64,000 bases of DNA from Alphaproteobacteria bacterium (lineage in GTDB: Bacteria > Pseudomonadota > Alphaproteobacteria > Acetobacterales > Acetobacteraceae). Of the stretch, positions 503 to 49,237 are shown one piece after another; positions within the stretch are counted from its first letter, which is position 1; each line of letters opens with the position of its first letter. The position numbers were made by a program, and so were the translations under genes. Where the stretch lies: the NCBI GenBank assembly GCA_026400815.1, contig JAPLOI010000006.1, forward strand, positions 38,133-102,132. The letters run 5' to 3'. The notes under the pieces were generated by a model. It did not search any database. It was given only the letters and a program-made list of their open reading frames with translations, and was not told the origin of the DNA.

Positions 503-544
503 GCGTGGGTCCCCGTGGATGAGCGCGGCCTGGATGCGGCGCTA

Positions 545-602
545 GGTCAGAACGTCTTTTTGCTTCTTTTTCTTCAGAAAAAGAAGGCGCTTGCTTGCTT
601 CC
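545..602. repeat. Solo right arm of the AT-rich palindromic repeat (family A)
   Basis: GGTCAGAACGTCTTTTTGCTTCTTTTTCTTCAGAAAAAGAAGGCGCTTGCTTGCTTCC is nearly identical to the right arms at 13575-13624 and 37711-37763. It sits in the divergent intergenic region between the oxidoreductase and rph. Confidence 0.6.
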
Positions 603-12648: not shown

Positions 12649-13491
12649 ATGGACGCGCAGCAGATGATGGTGATGCCGGTTTCCGGCGCCGTGGGGGCCG
12701 AGGTGCGGGGCATCGATATCTCCCGCCCGCTGCCGGCGGTAACGGTGGCGACCCTGCGCGCGGCGCTGGGGGAGCACGGGGTGCTGTTCTTCCGCGACCA
12801 GGCGCTGACCGAGGCGCAGCACATCGCCTTTGCCGAGCAGTTCGCCAAGATCAACATCAACCGCTTCTTCCGCGCAGTGGAGGGCTGGCCGCAGATCGCC
12901 GAGGTGCGCAAGGAGCCGGAGCAGACCAAGAATATCGGCGGCGGCTGGCATACCGACCACAGCTACGACCAGATCCCGGCCCTCGGCTCCCTGCTCTATG
13001 CCCGCGAAGTGCCGCCCTCCGGCGGTGATACGATCTTCGCCAGCATGTTCGCCGCCTACGACGCGCTGTCGGACGGGCTGAAGCGCACGCTGGAAGGGCT
13101 GCGCGCCGTCCATTCCAGCCGCCACGTGTTCGGCACCCAGGCCAAGCGCGGCGATGACCTGAAGGACCGGCTGGGCAACGCCGAAGCCGCCACGCAGGAC
13201 GCGGTGCACCCGATGGTGATCACCCACCCGATCAGCGGCAAGAAGGCGCTGTACGTGAACCGCGGCTTCACCACCCATATCGAGGGCTGGACGGTGGAAG
13301 AGTCCAAGCCGCTGCTGGAATACCTCTACCAGCATGGGGCGCGGCCGGAGTTCAGCTGCCGGTTCAACTGGGCGCCGGGCTCGATGGCGTTCTGGGACAA
13401 CCGGGCGACGTGGCACCTGGCGGTGAACGATTATCAGGGGCATCGGCGGTTGATGCACCGGATTACGCTGGAAGGTGTGGCGATTTCTTAA
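12649..13491 (+). CDS. tauD: TauD/TfdA family Fe(II)/2-oxoglutarate dioxygenase (taurine dioxygenase-like)
   Basis: WHTDHSYDQIPALGSLLYAREVPPSGGDTIFASM and ATWHLAVNDY match the family. The protein is 280 aa. Confidence 0.8.
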   Translation: MDAQQMMVMPVSGAVGAEVRGIDISRPLPAVTVATLRAALGEHGVLFFRDQALTEAQHIAFAEQFAKININRFFRAVEGWPQIAEVRKEPEQTKNIGGGWHTDHSYDQIPALGSLLYAREVPPSGGDTIFASMFAAYDALSDGLKRTLEGLRAVHSSRHVFGTQAKRGDDLKDRLGNAEAATQDAVHPMVITHPISGKKALYVNRGFTTHIEGWTVEESKPLLEYLYQHGARPEFSCRFNWAPGSMAFWDNRATWHLAVNDYQGHRRLMHRITLEGVAIS

Positions 13492-13493
13492 GG

Positions 13494-13624
13494 AAGCAAG
13501 CGCGTTCTTTTTTGAAAAAAAGAACCAAAAAACTTTTGTGACTTTGCGCCGAGGCTAGCCCCGGCGCAAAGTCAGGAAGTCTTTTTTGCTTCTTTTTTCT
13601 TCAGAAAAAAGAAGACTCTTGCTT
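13494..13624. repeat. Full-length AT-rich palindromic MITE-like element (family A)
   Basis: The left arm is AAGCAAGCGCGTTCTTTTTTGAAAAAAAGAACCAAAAAACTTTT. The central hairpin is GACTTTGCGCCG...CGGCGCAAAGTC. The right arm is the inverse, AAGTCTTTTTTGCTTCTTTTTTCTTCAGAAAAAAGAAGACTCTTGCTT. The element fills the entire gap between the convergent tauD and sseA stop codons. Confidence 0.75.
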
Positions 13625-14492
13625 ATCCTGCCTCCATCGGCAGCGACGGGTCCTTCACCCACTCACTGAGCGAGGCATCGTAGAGCTTCACGTCCTTGTG
13701 CCCGAGCATCGTTAGCACCAGCGCGTCCGCGCTCGCAGCGATGCCGCCGCCGCAATAGGTGATCACGCTGCGGTCCATCGCGCCCACGGCTTCGAACTTC
13801 GCACGCAGTTCCTCGGCCGGCAGGAATTCGTTGGTGGCGGGATCCAGCAGGTTGGTCGCGGCGACGTTGACGCTGCCAGCGATGCGGCCGGGGCGGCCGT
13901 AATGCACGCCGCCGGTGCCGGTGTGCTGTTCCGGGCGGAGGGCGTTGATGGTGCAGATGCTGCCGCTGTTGATGGCGGCGAGCACCTCGTTCTTGTCGGC
14001 CATCAGCGGGCGCAGGGCGCGGGCGGTGAAGTGGGCCGGTGTGCGGGGCGTGCCGGCCCCGGTTTCCACCGGGCGCTGCTCGGCGGACCATTTCTGGAAG
14101 CCGCCATCGAGCACGGCGGCATTGTCGTGGCCGAACACGCGCAGCAGCCACCAGACGCGGCTGGCCCACCACACATTGGCGGTGCTGTAGAGGATCACGC
14201 GCGTGGCATCGCCCACGCCCAGACGGGCCATGCTGGCGGCGAAGCGCTGGGCGCTGGGCAGCATGAAGCGGAATTCATGGCCGGGCTCGGACAGGTCGGC
14301 CTGGAGGTCCACGAACTGGGCGCCGGGGATGTGGCCCTGTTCGAAATCGGCGCGGCCGGGCTTCGCCGTGTAGCCGGCGCCTGGCTCGGGGATCAGGTGG
14401 GTGGTGGCATCCAGCACGACCACGCCGGGATCATCCAGGTGCGCGGCGAGCCAGGCGGTGTCGACGAGATATTCGGGATGGGCGAAGGCCAT
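13623..14492 (-). CDS. sseA: Sulfurtransferase (tandem rhodanese; 3-mercaptopyruvate/thiosulfate sulfurtransferase)
   Basis: The protein has two rhodanese domains and the active-site loop ITYCGGGIAAS. It is 289 aa. Confidence 0.85.
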   Translation of the reverse strand: MAFAHPEYLVDTAWLAAHLDDPGVVVLDATTHLIPEPGAGYTAKPGRADFEQGHIPGAQFVDLQADLSEPGHEFRFMLPSAQRFAASMARLGVGDATRVILYSTANVWWASRVWWLLRVFGHDNAAVLDGGFQKWSAEQRPVETGAGTPRTPAHFTARALRPLMADKNEVLAAINSGSICTINALRPEQHTGTGGVHYGRPGRIAGSVNVAATNLLDPATNEFLPAEELRAKFEAVGAMDRSVITYCGGGIAASADALVLTMLGHKDVKLYDASLSEWVKDPSLPMEAG

Positions 14493-18570: not shown

Positions 18571-19512
18571 ATGGCGCGCATCAACCGCTGCATCGAGCTG
18601 CTGCAACAGGATATCGGCGTGTACTACACCGGCCACCACACCGGGCACGTGCTGACCTACGAGCAAGGCCGCGAAGACGCCGGCACCTGGGCCGACTACA
18701 TCAACATCGGCATGGAACACGGCGCCTTCGACATGGGCGGGCTCGCCGCCTACATGCGCGGCCTCGTCGATGGCGGGCCCACCCGCTCTGGCCACCGCAC
18801 CCCCACCGTGGTGGTGGAAGCGCCCGTCAACGGCACCTCCGAAGCCAACGTGCTGCATAATGCCTGGCAGTTCCGCCAGATCCTGGGCCGCGGCGTGCAC
18901 GGCATCATCCTCTGCCAGGCCGAAACGCCGGAAGCCGTGCGCGCCTTCGTGGAATCCTGCCGCTACCCGATCGGCGCCCAAGGCCTGGACCCCGCCATGC
19001 CCACGCCGCTGGAACGCATGGCCGGCAAGAAGAAGGTCACCCCCAAGCCCGGCACGCTCGGCGTCGGCACCCGCGGCCAAGGCTCCGAGCCCGACGCCGC
19101 CCATGTCTGGGGCATCGAGCAGATCGACTACAAGCAACGCTGTGACCCCTGGCCGCTGAACCCCAAGGGCGAACTCATGCTTGGCGTGAAGCTGGAAAGC
19201 CCCGAAGGCGTGGCGCGCTGCGAGGAAATCCTGGCCGTGCCCGGCCTCGCCTACGCCGAAATCGGGCCAGGCGACCTCGGCTTCTCGCTGGGCTACCTCA
19301 CCATGCGCAACAACCCCTACCCGCCGGAACTGCAAACCGCGCGCGACCGCATCCTGCGCGCCTGCCACCGCAATGGGCTCGCCTTCCTGGAAGCCTGCTG
19401 GCCGGAAAACATCAAGCAACGCATCGATGACGGCGTGCGCGTGCTGGCCGGCGGCCGGGAAGACGCAGCCACCATCGGCCGGGCCTACCAGGGGCGGACG
19501 ATGCCGGTGTGA
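18571..19512 (+). CDS. HpcH/HpaI aldolase / citrate-lyase beta-like family protein
   Basis: IGMEHGAFD, GIILCQAETPEAVRAFVESCRYP and KLESPEGV...AEIGPGDLGFSLG follow the HpcH/HpaI pattern. GGGGGA lies upstream of the ATG at 18571. Confidence 0.75.
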   Translation: MARINRCIELLQQDIGVYYTGHHTGHVLTYEQGREDAGTWADYINIGMEHGAFDMGGLAAYMRGLVDGGPTRSGHRTPTVVVEAPVNGTSEANVLHNAWQFRQILGRGVHGIILCQAETPEAVRAFVESCRYPIGAQGLDPAMPTPLERMAGKKKVTPKPGTLGVGTRGQGSEPDAAHVWGIEQIDYKQRCDPWPLNPKGELMLGVKLESPEGVARCEEILAVPGLAYAEIGPGDLGFSLGYLTMRNNPYPPELQTARDRILRACHRNGLAFLEACWPENIKQRIDDGVRVLAGGREDAATIGRAYQGRTMPV

Positions 19513-19725
19513 GGGGAGGGAAGGCGAGGGGCTCTGCCCCTCGACCCCGCTGGGGCCTTAGGCCCCAGACCCCTCGACCTTTTTCCGCCTTCGGCGGGGA
19601 GGGGCCGTCGAGGCGGTGGAGAGACCCGGGCGGCCCCTCCCCGCCGAAGGCGGAAAATCATGTGGGTCCAGGGACCTCAGGTCCCTGGCGGGTCCAGGGC
19701 AGAGCCCTGGCCTTCCTTTCCCTTC
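19513..19725. repeat. GC-rich nested-palindrome element (family B), copy 1
   Basis: Outer arms GGAAGGCGAGGGGCTCTGCCCCTCGACCCCGCTGGGGCCTTAGGCCCCAGACCCC and GGGTCCAGGGACCTCAGGTCCCTGGCGGGTCCAGGGCAGAGCCCTGGCCTTCC are present. The inner palindrome is TTCCGCCTTCGGCGGGGAGGGGCCG...CGGCCCCTCCCCGCCGAAGGCGGAA. The element fills the gap between convergent stop codons at 19512 and 19728. Confidence 0.75.
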
Positions 19726-19727
19726 AC

Positions 19728-23232: not shown

Positions 23233-23440
23233 CGGGAGGGAGAGGGAAGGCGAGGGGCTCTGCCCCTCGACCCCGCTGGGGCCTTAGGCCCCAGACCCCT
23301 TTATCTTTTCCGCCTTCGGCGGGAGGGGCCGTCTCGGCGCGCGAAACAGACCGGGTCGGCCCCTCCCGCCGAAGGCGGAACTCATGTGGGTCCAGAGACC
23401 TCAGGTCCCTGGCGGGTCCAGGGCAGAGCCCTGGCCTTCC
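23233..23440. repeat. GC-rich nested-palindrome element (family B), copy 2
   Basis: This copy is colinear with 19513-19725 apart from the central loop. It abuts the mtnC stop codon at 23441. Confidence 0.75.
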
Positions 23441-24133
23441 TCACCCCACCCGCGGCAACCCGAGCAGGCTGGCGGCCTCGACGAAGGTGGCGGCGGTGGG
23501 GTGGCGGTCGGAGGGTGGGGTTGCGGTGCCCGGGCGCACGATGTGGCAGGCGCGCATGCCAGCGGTGGTGGCGGCGTCCAGTTCGGATTCGTTGTCCGAC
23601 AGGAAGGCCACGGCGGAGGGCGGCACGTTCATGCCGATCGCCAGGCGCACGTAGCTGTCCGGGTCGCGCTTGGCGCCGATGCGGGTATCGAAGAACCCGG
23701 CGATCACGGCCGAGAGGTCACCGGCGGTGGAGTGGCCGAAGATCAGCTTCTGCGCCGGGATGGAGCCGGAGGTGTAGGTGAAGATGCGAATGCCCCTGGT
23801 GGCCCAGGCGTGCAGATGCGGCGGCACGTCGGGATAGAGTTCCCCGCGCAGCTCGCCCTCGGCGTAGCCTTGTTCCCAGATCATGCCCTGCAGGCGCTGC
23901 AACGGCGCGAGCTTGAGGTCGCGGTCCGTCCAGTGCTGCAGCGTGGTGAGTTCCGACTGGTCCGGCACCATGCGCCGGATTTCCGCCAGGATGGTGGCAA
24001 CTTCCGGCAGGTCGATGCGGCCGGCCCAATCGGGCAGGGCACGGCGCGCATAGGGCAGGAGCACGCCGTGGATGAACACGGCGGGCGTGGTCGTGCCCTC
24101 GATATCGGTCAGAACGGCCGAAGGGGCGCGCAC
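23441..24133 (-). CDS. mtnC: Enolase-phosphatase E1 / acireductone synthase (HAD family)
   Basis: VLTDIEGTTTP is the HAD motif I, and FLSDNESELDAA is also present. I chose the GTG start at 24133 because the longer ORF would overlap tatA. Confidence 0.75.
   Translation of the reverse strand: MRAPSAVLTDIEGTTTPAVFIHGVLLPYARRALPDWAGRIDLPEVATILAEIRRMVPDQSELTTLQHWTDRDLKLAPLQRLQGMIWEQGYAEGELRGELYPDVPPHLHAWATRGIRIFTYTSGSIPAQKLIFGHSTAGDLSAVIAGFFDTRIGAKRDPDSYVRLAIGMNVPPSAVAFLSDNESELDAATTAGMRACHIVRPGTATPPSDRHPTAATFVEAASLLGLPRVG

Positions 24134-36122: not shown

Positions 36123-36126
<4 letters not shown>
35464..36126 (+). CDS. SURF1 family cytochrome oxidase biogenesis protein
   Basis: LGTWQVSRLLWKRDLL, ERGWVP and NNHLPYAITWYGLA are present. 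The GTG start overlaps the DUF983 stop (GTGA). Confidence 0.8.
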
Positions 36127-37625
<1,499 letters not shown>

Positions 37626-37763
37626 GAAGCAAGCATGTTCTTTTTTGAAAAAAAGAACCAAAAAACTTTTATCCGCTTGCGCCGGTCCCTCCACGGAACC
37701 TCGGCACCAGGTCAGAAAAGTCTTTTTGCTTCTTTTTCTTCAGAAAAAGAAGAGTCTTCCTTC
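37626..37763. repeat. Full-length AT-rich palindromic MITE-like element (family A)
   Basis: GGAAGCAAGCATGTTCTTTTTTGAAAAAAAGAACCAAAAAACTTTT ... AAAGTCTTTTTGCTTCTTTTTCTTCAGAAAAAGAAGAGTCTTCC starts 1 nt after the M32 stop and ends 2 nt before the next ATG. Confidence 0.75.
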
Positions 37764-37765
37764 CT

Positions 37766-38824
37766 ATGACCGCCCGCCACCGCGCCCAGGCCTTCTGCAC
37801 CCGCTTCGGCCTGGCCACCCCCATCCTCATGGCCCCCATGGCCGGCGCCTGCCCGCCCGCCCTCGCCGCTGCCGTCGCCAACGCGGGCGGCATGGGCGCG
37901 ATGGGCGCCCTCACCTCCGACCCCGCCGCCATCGCCGCCTGGGCCGCCACCTTCCGCGCCCACTCCAACGGTGCCTTCCAGATCAACCTCTGGATCCCCG
38001 ACGCCCCAACCACCCGCGACCCCGCCGCCGAAGCCCGGGTCCGCGCCCTGCTCTCGCGCTTCGGCCCGGAGCCCCCGCCCGAAGCCGGGGATACCCCCCT
38101 GCAGGATTTCCAGGCCCAGCTCGCCGCCCTCCTCGCCGCCCGCCCGCAGGCTGTCTCCTCCATCATGGGCCTCTACCCGCCGGAAGCGGTGGCGGAGATG
38201 AAGCGCCGGGGCATTGCCTGGTTCGCCTGCGCCACCACCCTGGCCGAAGCCCGCGCCGCCGAGGCCGCGGGAGCCGACGCCATCGTCGCCCAGGGCGTTG
38301 AAGCCGGCGGCCATCGCGGCAGCTTCACCCCGGAAGCCGCAGATACCCAGCTCGTCGGCCTCATGGCCCTCCTGCCGCGCCTCGCGGACCACCTCTCGGT
38401 CCCCATCATCGCCACCGGTGGCATCGCGGATGCCCGCACCATCGCTGCCGCCCTCACGCTGGGCGCCAGCGCCGTGCAGATCGGCACCGCCCTGCTGCGC
38501 ACCCCGGAAGCCGCCACCCACCCGGCCTGGACCGCGGCGCTGGAGAACCTGGAACCCGAAGCCACCATGCCCACGCGCTGGTTCTCCGGCCGCCTCGGCC
38601 GCGCGGTCGCCACCACCTACGTCCGCGCAACCTCGGGCCACCCCGCCGCCCCCTACCCGGTGCAACGCGGCCTCACCACCCCCATGCGAGACGCCGCCGC
38701 GAAGGCCAACAACGCCCAGGCCATGCAGCTCTGGGCCGGCCAATCCGCCGCCCTTGCTCGCCCAGCCCCCGCCGCCGACCTCATCCGCGGCTGGTGGGCC
38801 GAAGCCCAAACCCTCCTGCCCTGA
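37766..38824 (+). CDS. Nitronate monooxygenase (NMO / 2-nitropropane dioxygenase family)
   Basis: [31 protein letters not shown] and [12 protein letters not shown] match the family. Confidence 0.85.
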
Positions 38825-40933: not shown

Positions 40934-41415
40934 CAGCCTTTGAGCGCCTCTTCGAACATCAAAAGCGCCCGGTCGGCGAACACCCACATGTTCTCCGCCC
41001 GGTCATCCAGCCCCGTGTCGATCTGCAGGGAAAGCGGCATCGCGCCGGCCACCGCGAAGCACGCCCGCCCCGAAGGGTGCCCATACCGGTTCCCGCCCGG
41101 CCCCGCCGCGCCCGTCTCCGCCAGGGCCCAGGTGGCGCCGAACTTCTCCTTCATCGCCCCGGCCATCAGCGCCGCCATCTGCACCGAATTCGGCGGCACG
41201 CTCGCCAACTCCCGGTCGCTCAGCTCCAACAGCAGATTGCGCGACAGCCGCGTGTAAACCACCACCCCGCCGAGGTAGTAGGCAGAGGCCCCGGGCACCG
41301 CGAGCAACGCGGCCGAGATCAGCCCGCCCGCCGAACTCTCCGCCACCGCCACCTTGTCGCCGCGCTGCTTCAACAGCGCACCTACCCGTTCAGCCACCGG
41401 CATCAAGCGTTCCAT
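40933..41415 (-). CDS. CinA-family protein (PncC-type nicotinamide-nucleotide amidohydrolase domain)
   Basis: VAVAESSAGGLISAALLAVPGASAYYLGGVVVYT matches the CinA domain. GAGGGAGG lies upstream of the ATG at 41415. Confidence 0.85.
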   Translation of the reverse strand: MERLMPVAERVGALLKQRGDKVAVAESSAGGLISAALLAVPGASAYYLGGVVVYTRLSRNLLLELSDRELASVPPNSVQMAALMAGAMKEKFGATWALAETGAAGPGGNRYGHPSGRACFAVAGAMPLSLQIDTGLDDRAENMWVFADRALLMFEEALKG

Positions 41416-41432
41416 GTCATCCTCCCTCAAGT

Positions 41433-41519
41433 AAGCAAGCATGTTCTTTTTTGAAAAAAGAACCAAAAAACTTTTGTCTATTTGGGCCTGGGCGCAGACG
41501 GACGAAGTCCTTTTTCTTC
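41433..41519. repeat. Family A element with an intact left arm and a degenerate right arm
   Basis: AAGCAAGCATGTTCTTTTTTGAAAAAAGAACCAAAAAACTTTTG...GAAGTCCTTTTTCTTCC lies between the marR stop (41520) and the cinA RBS. Confidence 0.6.
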
Positions 41520-42032
41520 CTAAGGCTCAGGCGGGGCAGGGGCCTCCCCCTCGCCTTCCGCCGCATCCAGAACCCTCGCATGCGCCGCCAGCCGCGCCAA
41601 TGCGCCCTGCAGCGCCGCCAACTCCATCGCATCCATCCCCGCTGCCAAGTCCCCCGCCAGCGTGCGCGCCCGCGCCACGATCGCCCGGTGCACCGCCTCC
41701 CCTTGCCCGGTCAGCCTCAGCAGCCGCGCCCGCCCATCCGCCGGGTCCGGCGCCTGCTCCAGCAGCCCCGCCGCCAGCAACCCGCCAGCCGCCCGGCTCA
41801 CCTTCACCTTGTCCATCTCGGTGCGCTCGCCCACCACGCTCGCCGTGATCGCCCCGAACCGCCCCACCACCGCCATCACCCGCCATTCCGCGATGGAAAG
41901 CCCGAACTCGCGCGAGTAACGCCGCGCGAACAGCCGCGAAATCCGGTTCGCCGCCACCGAAAGCTGATACGGCAGGAACGCCTCCAGCAGGAACGGCCCC
42001 TCCTCCACCTCCACGCTTGCCATCCGTTCCAT
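41520..42032 (-). CDS. MarR family transcriptional regulator
   Basis: A winged-helix core is present: LSIAEWRVMAVVGRFGAITASVVGERTEMDKVKVSRAAGGLLAAGLLE...DGRARLLRLT. Confidence 0.85.
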   Translation of the reverse strand: MERMASVEVEEGPFLLEAFLPYQLSVAANRISRLFARRYSREFGLSIAEWRVMAVVGRFGAITASVVGERTEMDKVKVSRAAGGLLAAGLLEQAPDPADGRARLLRLTGQGEAVHRAIVARARTLAGDLAAGMDAMELAALQGALARLAAHARVLDAAEGEGEAPAPPEP

Positions 42033-42104: not shown

Positions 42105-43082
42105 ATGTCCGGTTTCGCCTCCACCAACGACATGGCCGAAAAGAAGGTCTCCTTCGACGAACTCGGCCGCGGCCTCTACGCCTACACGGCAGAAGGCGAC
42201 CCCAACTCCGGCATCATCGTCGGCCCCGACGGCGTGGTCGTCGTCGATGCCCAGGCCACCCCCCTGATGGCGCAAGACGTCCAGGCCAAGATCGCCACGG
42301 TCACCGACCGCAAGGTGAACCAGATCGTCCTCTCCCACTACCACGCCGTCCGCGTCCTCGGCGCCACCGGCTACCCCGCCCACAGCATCATCGCGTCAGA
42401 CGTCTGCCGCAGCATGATCGTCGAGCGCGGCCAGCAGGATATGGACAGCGAGATCGGCCGCTTCCCCCGCCTCTTCCGCGGCAAGGAAAGCATCCCCGGC
42501 CTCACCTGGCCCACCCAGACCTTCCACGGCCGCATGACCCTCTGGCTCGGCGACCGCGAGGCGCAAATCATCCATATCGGCCGCGCCCACACTGCCGGGG
42601 ACACCATCGTCTGGCTCCCCAAGGAAAAGGTCCTCTTTGCCGGCGACACCGTGGAATTCGGCGCCACCCCCTATTGCGGCGACGCCCATTTCACCGACTG
42701 GCCCAGCACCATCCGCAAGCTGCGCGAGCTCGGCGCCGAAAAGATGGTCCCCGGCCGCGGCCGCGCCCTGATGAACGCCGCCGAAGTGAAGGAAGCGCTG
42801 GACGGCACCGAAGCCTTCACCAGCAAGCTCTTCGCCATCGTCAAACAAGCCGCCGCCAAGGGCGCCGACCTCCGCACCATCTACGCCGAGGCCATGGACA
42901 AGATGCGCCCAGAGTTCGGCCACTGGGTCATCTTCGACCACTGCATGCCCTTCAACGTCAGCCGCGCCTTCGACGAAGCCCAGGGCATCGACACCCCCCG
43001 CATCTGGACCGCCGAACGCGACATCGACATGTGGAAAGCCTTGGAAAACAAATCCGCCCAGGACGGCGAAATCAAGCGCTGA
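42105..43082 (+). CDS. MBL-fold metallo-hydrolase
   Basis: VVVDAQATP, IVLSHYHAVRVLG (a degenerate HxHxD position) and HTAGDTIVWLP...FAGD are present. AGGGAGGG lies upstream of the ATG. The gene is divergent from marR. Confidence 0.8.
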   Translation: MSGFASTNDMAEKKVSFDELGRGLYAYTAEGDPNSGIIVGPDGVVVVDAQATPLMAQDVQAKIATVTDRKVNQIVLSHYHAVRVLGATGYPAHSIIASDVCRSMIVERGQQDMDSEIGRFPRLFRGKESIPGLTWPTQTFHGRMTLWLGDREAQIIHIGRAHTAGDTIVWLPKEKVLFAGDTVEFGATPYCGDAHFTDWPSTIRKLRELGAEKMVPGRGRALMNAAEVKEALDGTEAFTSKLFAIVKQAAAKGADLRTIYAEAMDKMRPEFGHWVIFDHCMPFNVSRAFDEAQGIDTPRIWTAERDIDMWKALENKSAQDGEIKR

Positions 43083-43096
43083 GAAAGCAAGAAAGT

Positions 43097-43193
43097 GGCC
43101 ACAAAGACACTAAGACACAAAGAAAAGCAGGAAGAAGGCCACGGGCACCTTCCCGCTTCCTTAGTGTCTTTGTGTCTTAGTGGCCGCTTTTTT
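43097..43193 (+). terminator. Long hairpin terminator built from (A/T)AAGACAC octamers
   Basis: The arms GGCCACAAAGACACTAAGACACAAAG (43097-43122) and CTTAGTGTCTTTGTGTCTTAGTGGCC (43160-43185) pair at 23 of 26 positions. The hairpin is followed by GC and TTTTTT. Confidence 0.6.
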
Positions 43194-43230
43194 CCTTAAC
43201 CACACTCCGCCTCCCCCAGCGCCAAACCCC

Positions 43231-46284: not shown

Positions 46285-47561
46285 ACACCCACGATCCCGC
46301 CGCCCGCTCCTGGCTCCCCAGCGCCAACGGCCACGCCGACTTCCCGCTGCAGAACCTCCCCCTCGGCATCTTCTCCACCGCAGACGGCAATAAGCGCCCC
46401 GGCACCGCCATCGGTGACTCCATCCTCGATCTCAAGGCCGCCCTCGCAGCCCGCCTCCTCACCGGCGAAGCCGCGAACGCCATCGAAGCCTGCGCCGAAA
46501 CCCTCAACCCCCTCTTCGCCCTCGGCGCCCCCGCCCGCCAGGCCCTGCGCACCCAACTCTTCGCCTTGCTGCACGAATCCAGCCCCGCCCGCCCCGAACT
46601 CCTCTACCCCGCCAGCGCCTGCACCCTCCACGTCCCGGCGCAGATCGGCGACTACACGGATTTCTACGCCGGCATCCACCACGCCAGGAACGGCGGCCTG
46701 CTCTTCCGGCCAGACAACCCCCTGATGCCAAACTACAAATACGTCCCCGTCGCCTATCACGGCCGCGCCTCCTCCGTGCGCCCCTCGCCCTCCGCGCTGC
46801 GCCGCCCGCAAGGCCAGCGCAAACTCCCGGAAGAACAAGCCCCCACCTACGGCCCCTGCCGCAACCTCGATTACGAGCTCGAAATGGGCATCTGGATCGG
46901 CCCCGGCAACCAACCCGGCACCCCCATCCCCATCGCCAAAGCCGCCGACCACATCGCCGGCTTCTGCCTCCTCAACGACTGGTCGGCCCGCGACATCCAG
47001 TCCTGGGAATCCCAACCCCTCGGCCCCTTCCTGGCCAAGAATTTCCAAACCTCCATCTCCCCCTGGGTCATCACCCCCGAAGCCCTCGCCCCCTTCAGAA
47101 GCGCCCAACCCCCGCGCCCCAACGGCGACCCCGCCCCACTCCCCCACCTCTTCGACACCGCCGACCAGTCAAACGGCGCCCTCGACCTCACCCTCGAAGT
47201 CACCATCCACACCGCCCAAATGCGCGCCAACAACCAACCCCCCGCCCGCCTCTCCATCGGCAACGCACTGAACCTCTACTGGACCCCCGCCCAAATGGTC
47301 GCCCACCACGCCAGCAACGGCTGCGACCTCCACCCCGGCGACCTCTTCGGCACCGGAACCATCTCCAGCCCCGAACCCACCGGCTGGGGCGCCCTGATGG
47401 AAATCACCCGCGGCGGCCGCGAACCCCTCACCCTGCCCAACGGCGAAACCCGCAAATTCCTCGAAGACGGCGACGAAATCACCCTCCACGCCCGCGCCCA
47501 CCGCCCCGGCCACGCCAGCATCGGCTTCGGCCCTTGCCGCGGGCTGGTGCTGCCATCATGA
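46281..47561 (+). CDS. fahA: Fumarylacetoacetase
   Basis: [32 protein letters not shown] and [10 protein letters not shown] are present. The ATG overlaps the hmgA stop (ATGA). Confidence 0.95.
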
Positions 47562-47682
47562 AAGAAAGCAAGCACGTTCTTTTCTGAAGAAAAGAACCAA
47601 AAGACTTTCACTCATTTGCCAATGGCGCCCGTTGTGCAAAACAACCAAACACCCCGTCATTGCGAACGAAGTGAAGCAAGCC
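47511..47682 (+). repeat. Direct repeat DR1: the last 17 codons of fahA (stop included) plus a family-A-variant element
   Basis: DR1 aligns colinearly with 48741-48912 at a constant offset of 1230 bp. Confidence 0.8.
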
Positions 47683-47811
47683 AGCGCTTTGTTCTCCGGC
47701 GGCCGTCCGCGCGTGTGACTCCCCAGGCATCCCAATGAAAACGGCCCGCCCCTGGTGCAAGGGCGGGCCGCAATCCCGGTCGCAGCCCCCGCAAGCAGGG
47801 GCATCCAAGCG

Positions 47812-48700: not shown

Positions 48701-48740
48701 GGGTTGTCCCGTCGGCACCCTCGTCCTGCGCATTCCCCAC

Positions 48741-48791
48741 CACGCCAGTATCGGCTTCGGCCCCTGCCGCGGGCTCGTCCTGCCATCATGA
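48741..48791 (+). pseudogene. Orphan fahA 3'-end fragment (16 codons plus stop)
   Basis: The fragment encodes [16 protein letters not shown], identical to the fahA C-terminus. It has four nucleotide differences, all synonymous. No fahA body lies upstream. Confidence 0.7.
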
Positions 48792-48912
48792 ATGGAAGCA
48801 AGCGCGTTCTTTTCTGAAGAAAAGAACCAAAAGACTTTCATCCCTTTGCCAATGGCACCCGCCGGGTGGACCATCCAAACACCTCGTCATTGCGAACGAA
48901 GTGAAGCAATCC
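48741..48912 (+). repeat. Direct repeat DR2 (partner of 47511-47682)
   Basis: The order of segments matches DR1: fahA tail, AAGCAAGC..GTTCTTTTCTGAAGAAAAGAACCAAAAGACTTTCA, then CGTCATTGCGAACGAAGTGAAGCAA. Confidence 0.8.
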
Positions 48913-49237
48913 AGGCCTTCGTCCCCACAACAGTCCGCATCGGATCAAGAGAACGCGCCCGCCACATGCTCAATGGCCCTGCCGTGGCAGCGTTACGTCA
49001 TGCCCACCCCGTACCGGTTGGAACGTCATCGATACCACGGGCATCTCTGCGACACGTAGCCCGCATCTTGATGCGGGCCGGCACAGTCCCATGCGCGCCA
49101 GAGAACGCCACAAGCCCCTTCTCCGTGCCCTCTGTGGACCTCCGTGCTCTCTGTGTCCCCTTCCTTCCCACCCACCCAACCCCACCTAAAAAATTTCCTA
49201 TGAACGGCAACAAGTCTCTTCCCTTCGCCGCTCAATC

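Follow-up and report, generated by a model that had tools for sequence, protein, structure and literature searches.

Introduction

REP and BIME sequences and the REPIN doublets of E. coli, Pseudomonas and Stenotrophomonas are high-copy extragenic palindromes found within operons and at the 3′ ends of genes; the functions proposed for REP/BIME are in supercoiling, in termination and in the stability of mRNA, and the BIMEs of E. coli are bound by gyrase and IHF. Bacterial MITEs (Correia/NEMIS of Neisseria, ERIC, RUP and Nezha) are 100–160 bp long, end in terminal inverted repeats, reach hundreds of copies, give rise to long hairpin transcripts and have effects at gene boundaries. Bidirectional intrinsic terminators are found after stop codons between convergent genes and consist of a GC-rich stem-loop set between an A-rich and a T-rich tract; in GC-rich bacteria, ordinary U-tract terminators are scarce. 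MIRUs (mycobacterial interspersed repetitive units) are tandem direct repeats with small coupled ORFs and are not palindromes. A 2013 survey of GTAG- and CGTC-tagged REPs reported that REP termini often supply the TAG stop codon of flanking ORFs, and described CGTC repeats as absent from Acetobacteraceae (PMC3733652).

The sequence analyzed here (the window) is a stretch of 64,000 nucleotides from an Acetobacteraceae genome (G000; 5,111,241 bases, 89 contigs, 68.7% GC), in which it occupies C80:38133-102132. From the letters of the window, an AT-rich, palindromic, MITE-like repeat, here called family A, had been predicted in six copies or fragments, with either recent mobility or a selected role suggested for it. 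Our analysis identifies family A as an old, non-autonomous palindromic intergenic repeat of Acetobacteraceae that is REP/BIME-like in its lifestyle and has no tie to RAYT.

Results

Copies in the genome and the window

A profile HMM was seeded with the two full copies of the window, rebuilt from 238 full genome copies and used in nhmmer searches, in which non-overlapping hits with E<1e-3 were retained. In the 5.11-Mb genome the profile recovered 368 copies (~370), of which 247 are full-length (median 137 nt) and 84 consist of a single arm (21 left arm only, 63 right arm only). The resulting density of 1 copy per 14 kb is close to the roughly one per 10 kb estimated from the window. Copies are scattered over the 89 contigs and both strands (122 plus, 117 minus), and only 7 hits lie near contig ends; the family is therefore not an assembly artefact. 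Searches for the A/T hairpin motif gave 556 genome matches, 552 inside family-A hits and 4 outside. The pattern is far beyond chance in this genome, and the original prediction of a dispersed palindromic repeat without an ORF of its own holds.

All six predicted copies or fragments are present in the window and were recovered by the profile (536-598, 13488-13632, 37620-37772, 41427-41502, 47563-47619 and 48794-48849); a repeat finder also connected them. The full copy at 13490..13624 exactly fills the gap between two convergent genes: its left tip (AAGGAAGCAAGC, 13490-13501) overlaps the TAA stop codon (13489-13491) of ORF 12649..13491(+), and its right tip (ACTCTTGCTT, 13615-13624) overlaps the stop codon, seen as TTA at 13623-13625, of ORF 13623..14492(-). 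Between the tips lie hairpin 1 (GTTCTTTTTTGAAAAAAAGAAC, 13504-13525), the left spacer (CAAAAAACTTTT, 13526-13537), a central GC hairpin (13538-13576), the right spacer (AAGTCTTTTTTG, 13577-13588) and hairpin 2 (13589-13614). The inverted termini (AAGCAAG.../...CTTGCTT), the two A/T hairpins and the spacer CAAAAAACTTTT are as they had been described, and so is the GC hairpin at the center of this copy, where GACTTTGCGCCG pairs with CGGCGCAAAGTC.

The second full copy (37626..37765, plus strand) separates a tandem gene pair, beginning directly after the TAG stop codon (37623-37625) of ORF 36123..37625(+) and ending at the ATG (37766) of ORF 37766..38824(+); an orthologous copy is present in the close relative G002. 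At 536..602 (plus strand, profile positions 83-148) only the right arm is present, flanked by a minus-strand ORF that starts at 502 and by a plus-strand gene; G002 has an orthologous half copy. The copy at 41427..41519 (plus strand) retains the left arm and a decayed right side and is flanked by the stop codon, CTA at 41520-41522, of ORF 41520..42032(-) and by the start region of the next gene on the minus strand, with its Shine-Dalgarno sequence and its start codon (CAT, ~41414-41416). The remaining two (47563..47619 and 48794..48849, both plus strand) share a left arm, at 47563 with the variant hairpin GTTCTTTTCTGAAGAAAAGAAC and directly after a TGA stop codon. For these two copies a left arm fused to a different tail had been proposed; the arm and the different tail were confirmed, and the tail, CGTCATTGCGAACGAAGTGAAGCAA, proved to be a separate CGTC-tagged REP (47656-47680 and 48886-48910).

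The two loci form a 188-nt direct repeat (47505-47692 and 48735-48922, 86% identical) that spans the 3′ end of a gene together with the left arm of family A and the CGTC REP; the arm therefore predates that duplication. The CGTC-tagged REP (CGTCATTGCGAGCGAAGCGAAGCAATCC type) has 31-35 copies in G000, contrary to the statement in PMC3733652 for Acetobacteraceae.

Sequence and predicted folding

Genome copies give the consensus AAGGAAGCG-GTTCTTTTTTGAAAAAAAGAAC-CAAAAAACTTTT-[center]-AAAGTCTTTTTG-CTTCTTTTTCTTCAGAAAAAGAAG-ACTCTTCCTT. Over ~130 bases, an (AAGN)n tip, an A/T hairpin and an A6CT4 spacer lead to a variable GC hairpin, after which the same parts follow in mirror image; the arms are 30% GC and the center is 60% GC. 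The ends have a 4-nt period, the left one as (AAGN)n and the right one as (NCTT)n, with a variable number of units and with conservation fading outward, and the boundaries given here are fuzzy by one or two 4-nt units.

RNA folds of family A had energies of -49 to -65 kcal/mol (z = -5.2 to -8.0 compared with shuffles) and gave a long branched hairpin on either strand. The centers, which form sequence subfamilies (nearest-neighbor identity median 76%, maximum 95%, zero identical copies), had a mean MFE of -17.9 kcal/mol compared with -9.3 kcal/mol when shuffled. RNAalifold returned no structure for 190 copies because the centers do not align, and structure was assessed by per-copy and per-pair counts. 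The apex pair of the A/T hairpin was T.A in 459 cases, C.G in 287 and G.C in 62, with 10 of 818 unpaired, and pair 124-131 of hairpin 2 in a 12-sequence cross-genus alignment was UA in five, CG in five and GC in two: the hairpin pairs covary. Like an intrinsic terminator, family A has a GC-rich stem-loop downstream of the stop codon; the U-rich runs CUUCUUUUUCUUC and GUUCUUUUUUUC come after the extended stem and not directly after the GC core, and a simple consensus terminator scan flagged only hairpin 2.

Two other candidate signals in the element were rejected. The CcrM methylation site GANTC occurs in 144 of 247 right tips, where all four central bases are represented and where it sits within an 11-nt palindrome, GAAGANTCTTC (in the window at 13612-13616, GACTC), and in 4 of 247 left tips; as only 58% of right tips have it and the Gluconacetobacter copies do not keep it, it is not a defining feature. 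A promoter inside the arms was dismissed as well: TTGAAA-N17-TTTATT points inward and fails the -10 rule, and the promoter scan was empty.

Gene context

For flanking genes we relied on our own crude calls, with coding strand and frame taken from a codon-usage score. By these calls, full copies with both flanks coding numbered 48 between convergent genes, 77 between tandem genes and 1 between divergent genes, compared with 355, 1417 and 362 of all adjacent gene pairs (chi2 p = 1e-11); family A is enriched between convergent genes and almost never lies between divergent ones. Orientation relative to the upstream gene was random (90 vs 70). The element fills the whole spacer, from one stop codon to the stop codon or Shine-Dalgarno sequence of the next gene, and the downstream Shine-Dalgarno sequence and start codon usually lie 0-25 nt past it. 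At ~94% of 256 gene-facing ends, the first in-frame stop codon fell within -7..+10 nt of the profile start, with peaks at -2, +2 and +6, and the stop codon was TAA in 62%, compared with 16% genome-wide (p = 1e-52). From the 4-nt spacing of the peaks and the excess of TAA, it follows that the stop codon normally lies within a TAAG-type unit of the tip. One relative has a copy inside etfB-etfA, where G000 has only TGAgaATG.

The tips are shared with other repeats. Among 2062 gene ends without family A, AAGNAAG was present at ≤14 nt after the stop codon in 31, the antisense control, CTTNCTT, over this same interval in 0, and AAGNAAG at 41-59 nt in 6. Nearly all of the 31 run into other palindromic repeat families, at least four of which in G000 have the order stop codon, AAG-rich tip, palindrome, CTT-rich tip and then a stop codon or the next gene. 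Three such palindromes are in the window, at 19511-19727, 23240-23445 and 43081-43200. The first two are a GC-rich multi-hairpin palindromic repeat of ~215 nt (GGCGAGGGGCTCTGCCCCTCGACCCCGCTGGGGCCTTAGGCCCC...) with the ends GGGAAGG and CCTTCC, which at 19511-19727 directly adjoin two stop codons (TGA and TCA); another ~12 gene ends in G000 lead into this repeat. The third has octamer-repeat arms (CACAAAGACACTAAGACACAAAG) and lies between a TGA stop codon followed by GAAAGCAAGAAAG and CTTTTTTCCTTAA, and the related CACAGAG and CACGGAGG families follow other stop codons.

Occurrence among genera

Among one genome for each of 60 Acetobacteraceae genera, family A was detected in 16, about a quarter: 13 had 26-388 candidate copies, and G050, G067 and G081 had a single match each. 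In the genus of the window, it was carried by all 14 other genomes, with 371 copies counted in G000 and 569 in G005; the genome-wide and cross-genus counts proposed as a check on the prediction thus show that the copies are not only local. An exact 30-mer core searched against named genome records matched chiefly Acetobacteraceae metagenome bins, and also Gluconacetobacter liquefaciens, G. tumulicola, Roseomonas sp. GC11 and Acidiphilium sp. PA; copies were also found on two replicons of Pseudoroseomonas cervicalis. Across Gluconacetobacter, Acidiphilium, Roseomonas and Pseudoroseomonas, the arms are near-identical, including the loops and the A6CT4 spacers, the centers are unrelated and the tips differ. 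Such conservation of loop and spacer sequence exceeds what a plain RNA stem would need, and may reflect a sequence-specific partner or gene conversion among copies.

Microviridae sp. MG945182.1 (L209:640-830; record marked UNVERIFIED, 38% GC) also contains an exact left arm of family A and, after it, a GC-rich hairpin, both within a GC-rich intergenic patch of ~190 nt. Acquisition of host DNA or chimeric assembly of the record may explain this.

Turnover and substitution rates

Turnover was followed by comparison with 1.2 Mb of G002, in which flanks are ~95% identical to those of G000. Of the family-A sites for which both flanks were found (60 in G002, 65 in G000), ~95% were occupied in both genomes, and half copies were shared as half copies. 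Only two clear presence/absence differences were seen (C24:13952-14094 and C39:56902-57028), together with some internal deletions, and no clean empty site was present among the ~125 sites compared. These two element-free alleles and four from other relatives have an unrelated spacer in place of family A, in one case a GTAG REP and in another a different palindromic family, and their stop codons and last few codons also differ. With so many sites shared between species, the divergence of the centers and the lack of identical copies, recent mobility, one of the two suggestions made for the family, is not supported: family A is old and most copies are vertically inherited.

Decay by internal deletion was observed in G000 at C55:111737-111782 and C8:131374-131464 compared with G002. 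One case is a 44-nt solo hairpin in which half of hairpin 2 is fused to half of hairpin 1, and another is a half copy that is further shortened in the relative. Solo hairpins as an ancestral short form were rejected, since there are only four of them, one being plainly derived by deletion.

Substitutions were counted in 20 independent orthologous full copies of this one species pair, G000 and G002. Differences amounted to 2.1%, 1.1% and 12.1% at codon positions 1, 2 and 3, and to 9.0% in the tips, 2.8% in the left arm, 4.8% in the right arm and 17.2% in the center. With both arms pooled, 62 of 1602 positions differed (3.9% vs 12.1% at codon position 3; odds ratio 0.29, p = 4e-22), and the center exceeded codon position 3 (odds ratio 1.5, p = 4e-4). 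The arms are thus constrained in place, which fits function or persistent homogenization and not a decaying transposon relic. Since at orthologous sites the arms change ~3x more slowly than codon position 3, the other suggestion, a selected role indicated by conserved arms, agrees with the data, and bidirectional termination, named there as one such role, is plausible.

In 160 copies with a single transcription direction, sense and antisense folds differed by a mean of 0.26 kcal/mol (p = 0.76) and their G.U pairs by 0.09 (p = 0.48). This strand test for selection at the RNA level was negative for both fold energy and G.U content. As the constraint is strand-symmetric, a two-way RNA signal and a DNA-level palindrome both fit, and RNA is not singled out.

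Database matches and associated genes

In the window, no Rfam family matched at its gathering threshold; the only matches were to generic long-hairpin models at ≤30 bits, compared with cut-offs of 48-245. Literature searches on the hairpin sequence and on MITEs or REPs of Acetobacteraceae gave no description of the family, in line with the remark in the prediction that it was not recognizable as a named repeat, although searchable full text is incomplete and "undescribed" is provisional. Integron attC sites (RYYYAAC...GTTRRRY) were rejected, since family A ends in AAGNAAG/CTTNCTT and is dispersed on both strands.

An intact ORF family of ~121 aa has 39 copies in G000 (for example C43:33849-34211, C18:102293-102655 and C31:119032-119394), with the N-terminus MPHQPAAPSEADAPRPWARAILHARIPAALKLLLLALLAAFS, many copies ending in ARAPP, and GC3 > GC1 > GC2. 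No match to it was found in Pfam, NCBIfam or PHROG. For 19 of 30 copies a family-A arm was present within ~360 nt, and three copies lie between split left and right arms. The ORF family is found in 9 of 15 genomes of the genus (17-46 copies in six, G000 included, and 2-4 in three) and in 0 of 60 other genera. As a mobilizer of family A it was rejected, since it is absent from those 60 genera, 15 carriers of family A among them, and from six genomes of the same genus.

The only Y1_Tnp gene of G000 (C53:15927-16463, within C53:14478-17813) is RAYT-like and is flanked by GTAGCCCGCATCTTGATGCGGGC REPs, of which the genome has 7. Another GTAG REP (GTAGGGCGGGTC...) has ~24 copies in G000.

Discussion

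Our preferred reading, to which we assign a probability of about 50%, is that family A is a domesticated, REP/BIME-like hairpin module of gene ends, which would function in both directions as a terminator or attenuator and would protect 3′ ends, with probable read-through in operons. A transcript entering from either side would contain the purine-rich tip first, then a long stem in which the A/U arms close over the GC core, and the U/C-rich run last. RNA folded in this way could terminate or attenuate transcription in both directions and form a barrier to 3′ exonucleases, with partial read-through in operons, as with intercistronic REPs. Spread of the element would be rare, would leave no target duplication and would replace the entire spacer. 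The two 45-nt arms are near-constant at orthologous sites and across genera, and the GC-rich center drifts yet stays hairpin-forming. Several observations speak against a gene-end module: the U-rich run is separated from the GC core, the terminator scan flagged only hairpin 2, one relative has its copy inside etfB-etfA, the strand-symmetric constraint could act on DNA and not on RNA, loops and spacers are more conserved than a stem requires, and in the 77 tandem contexts the next start codon is within ~25 nt, so that a strong terminator would silence the downstream gene. No outward promoter was found in family A in these tandem contexts.

The element could instead owe its abundance to a described kind of transposition. 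A classic MITE, which is an insertion sequence with an internal deletion that a DDE transposase moves by recognizing the terminal inverted repeats, would explain the inverted termini, the small size (under 300 bp), the lack of an ORF, the high copy number, the sequence subfamilies and the patchy occurrence among genera. The MITE-like label of the original prediction is nevertheless not sustained, and such an origin is improbable. In junction windows of 246 copies, the longest direct match equaled the partner-shuffled null and no duplication of ≥4 nt was detected, a 2-3-nt duplication being below the resolution of this comparison because the ends of family A are fuzzy. Among left and right arm pairs up to 4 kb apart in G000, none enclosed a transposase; five split copies (419-702 nt) hold unrelated small genes, namely a GNAT gene, a small membrane-protein ORF and members of the 121-aa ORF family. 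The element-free alleles are not clean empty sites, and turnover is very low. A REPIN, in which two inverted REP units are mobilized in trans by a RAYT (Y1/HUH) transposase, also fits the form of family A: the element is an inverted doublet in which each hairpin unit follows a short conserved head, it is extragenic, at 3′ ends and without target duplication, and its tips provide stop codons, a property also reported for GTAG REPs (PMC3733652). For the known RAYTs, this explanation is largely refuted and we regard it as similarly improbable. The heads of family A are (AAGN)n followed by CGG, CATG or CGCG, and not GTAG or CGTC; the sole Y1_Tnp gene of G000 is flanked by its own GC-rich GTAG REP (GTAGCCCGCATC..GATGCGGGC) and not by family A; and Y1_Tnp matches were present in 6 of 61 genomes and in none of the carriers with 569, 388, 269 and 208 copies. 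RAYT was rejected as the mobilizer for these reasons.

The arms might instead be DNA-level binding sites for a sequence-specific protein, either a nucleoid or topology factor at gene ends, comparable to gyrase and IHF on BIMEs, or, through biased replacement, an uptake or recombination signal, with the hairpins as palindromic dimer sites. This would agree with the strand symmetry of the constraint, with loops and spacers that are conserved in sequence beyond pairing within and between genera, with polymorphic sites that resemble whole-spacer allele replacement, with the patchy occurrence among genera and with the enrichment between convergent genes. We find it rather doubtful all the same: the hairpin apex accepts three Watson-Crick pairs, so pairing is favored over base-specific contacts, and the binding protein is hypothetical. 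Two further points count against an uptake signal in particular, namely that natural competence is, to our knowledge, not established for Acetobacteraceae and that arms of 45 nt far exceed the length of known uptake signals. Somewhat less credible still is a selfish palindrome with no host function, its arms kept uniform by short-patch gene conversion or by copying of intact arms only, and gene ends being places where insertion is tolerated. Identical arms of 45 nt are long enough for homologous exchange, the centers drift freely, orientation is unbiased, and decay products (single arms, the 44-nt solo hairpin and internal deletions) are present, all as expected of such an element. What makes it unlikely is that distant genera keep the same arm sequence despite different centers, where conversion within genomes alone would yield genus-specific variants, that AT-rich arms persist in 69% GC genomes, and that the element fits the space from the stop codon to the next signal more tightly than tolerance alone predicts.

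The tips may extend the gene-end reading beyond family A. The layout of the families that share them (stop codon, AAG tip, palindrome, CTT tip) fits tips that serve as the A-tract and U-tract of two-way terminators in a GC-rich lineage; a common targeting or spreading mechanism is the other possibility. More tentatively, family A could be the most abundant member of a class of stop-codon-anchored palindromic modules, with at least five unrelated interiors between (AAGN)n/(NCTT)n tips, which might spread without duplication by swapping whole spacers and whose arms, in the case of family A, might be recognized by a dedicated partner, either protein or RNA, that is conserved across Acetobacteraceae. 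We give this broader version a fairly low probability.

About 8% of the genes of G000 end in family A, and many other Acetobacteraceae are alike in this, including cultured Gluconacetobacter and Pseudoroseomonas. Gene callers will misplace stop and start codons at these copies, and assemblers and comparative pipelines will treat them as repeats. Family A is a dispersed repeat with arms more constrained than silent sites and without the transposase that explains REPs elsewhere, which makes it a tractable system for studying how palindromes are maintained and spread and how gene ends function in GC-rich bacteria. That several unrelated repeat families have such tips as well suggests that gene ends in this lineage are built by a shared rule.

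In comparison with described systems, family A is closest to REP/BIME sequences and REPINs, with which it shares high copy number, an extragenic position at gene 3′ ends and inside operons, the inverted doublet, the lack of target duplication and termini able to supply the flanking stop codon. It differs from these in that its arms consist almost entirely of A/T within a genome of 69% GC, its unit is a three-hairpin composite of ~130 nt, its head is (AAGN)n and not GTAG/CGTC, and it has no link to RAYT. It is like bacterial MITEs in size, terminal inverted repeats, long hairpin, hundreds of copies and position at gene boundaries, and unlike them in having neither target-site duplication nor parent IS, in its very low turnover and in arms that are under purifying selection at fixed sites. 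As in bidirectional intrinsic terminators, a flanked GC stem-loop lies just past the stop codons of convergent genes; the stem of family A is far longer (~55 bp if the arms pair), its U-run is apart from the GC core, its copies are a dispersed homologous family and not independently evolved hairpins, and many of them lie in tandem pairs with no room for a downstream promoter. With MIRUs it has in common an intercistronic position and ends that overlap the upstream stop codon and the downstream start region; MIRUs are tandem direct repeats carrying ORFs, whereas family A is palindromic.
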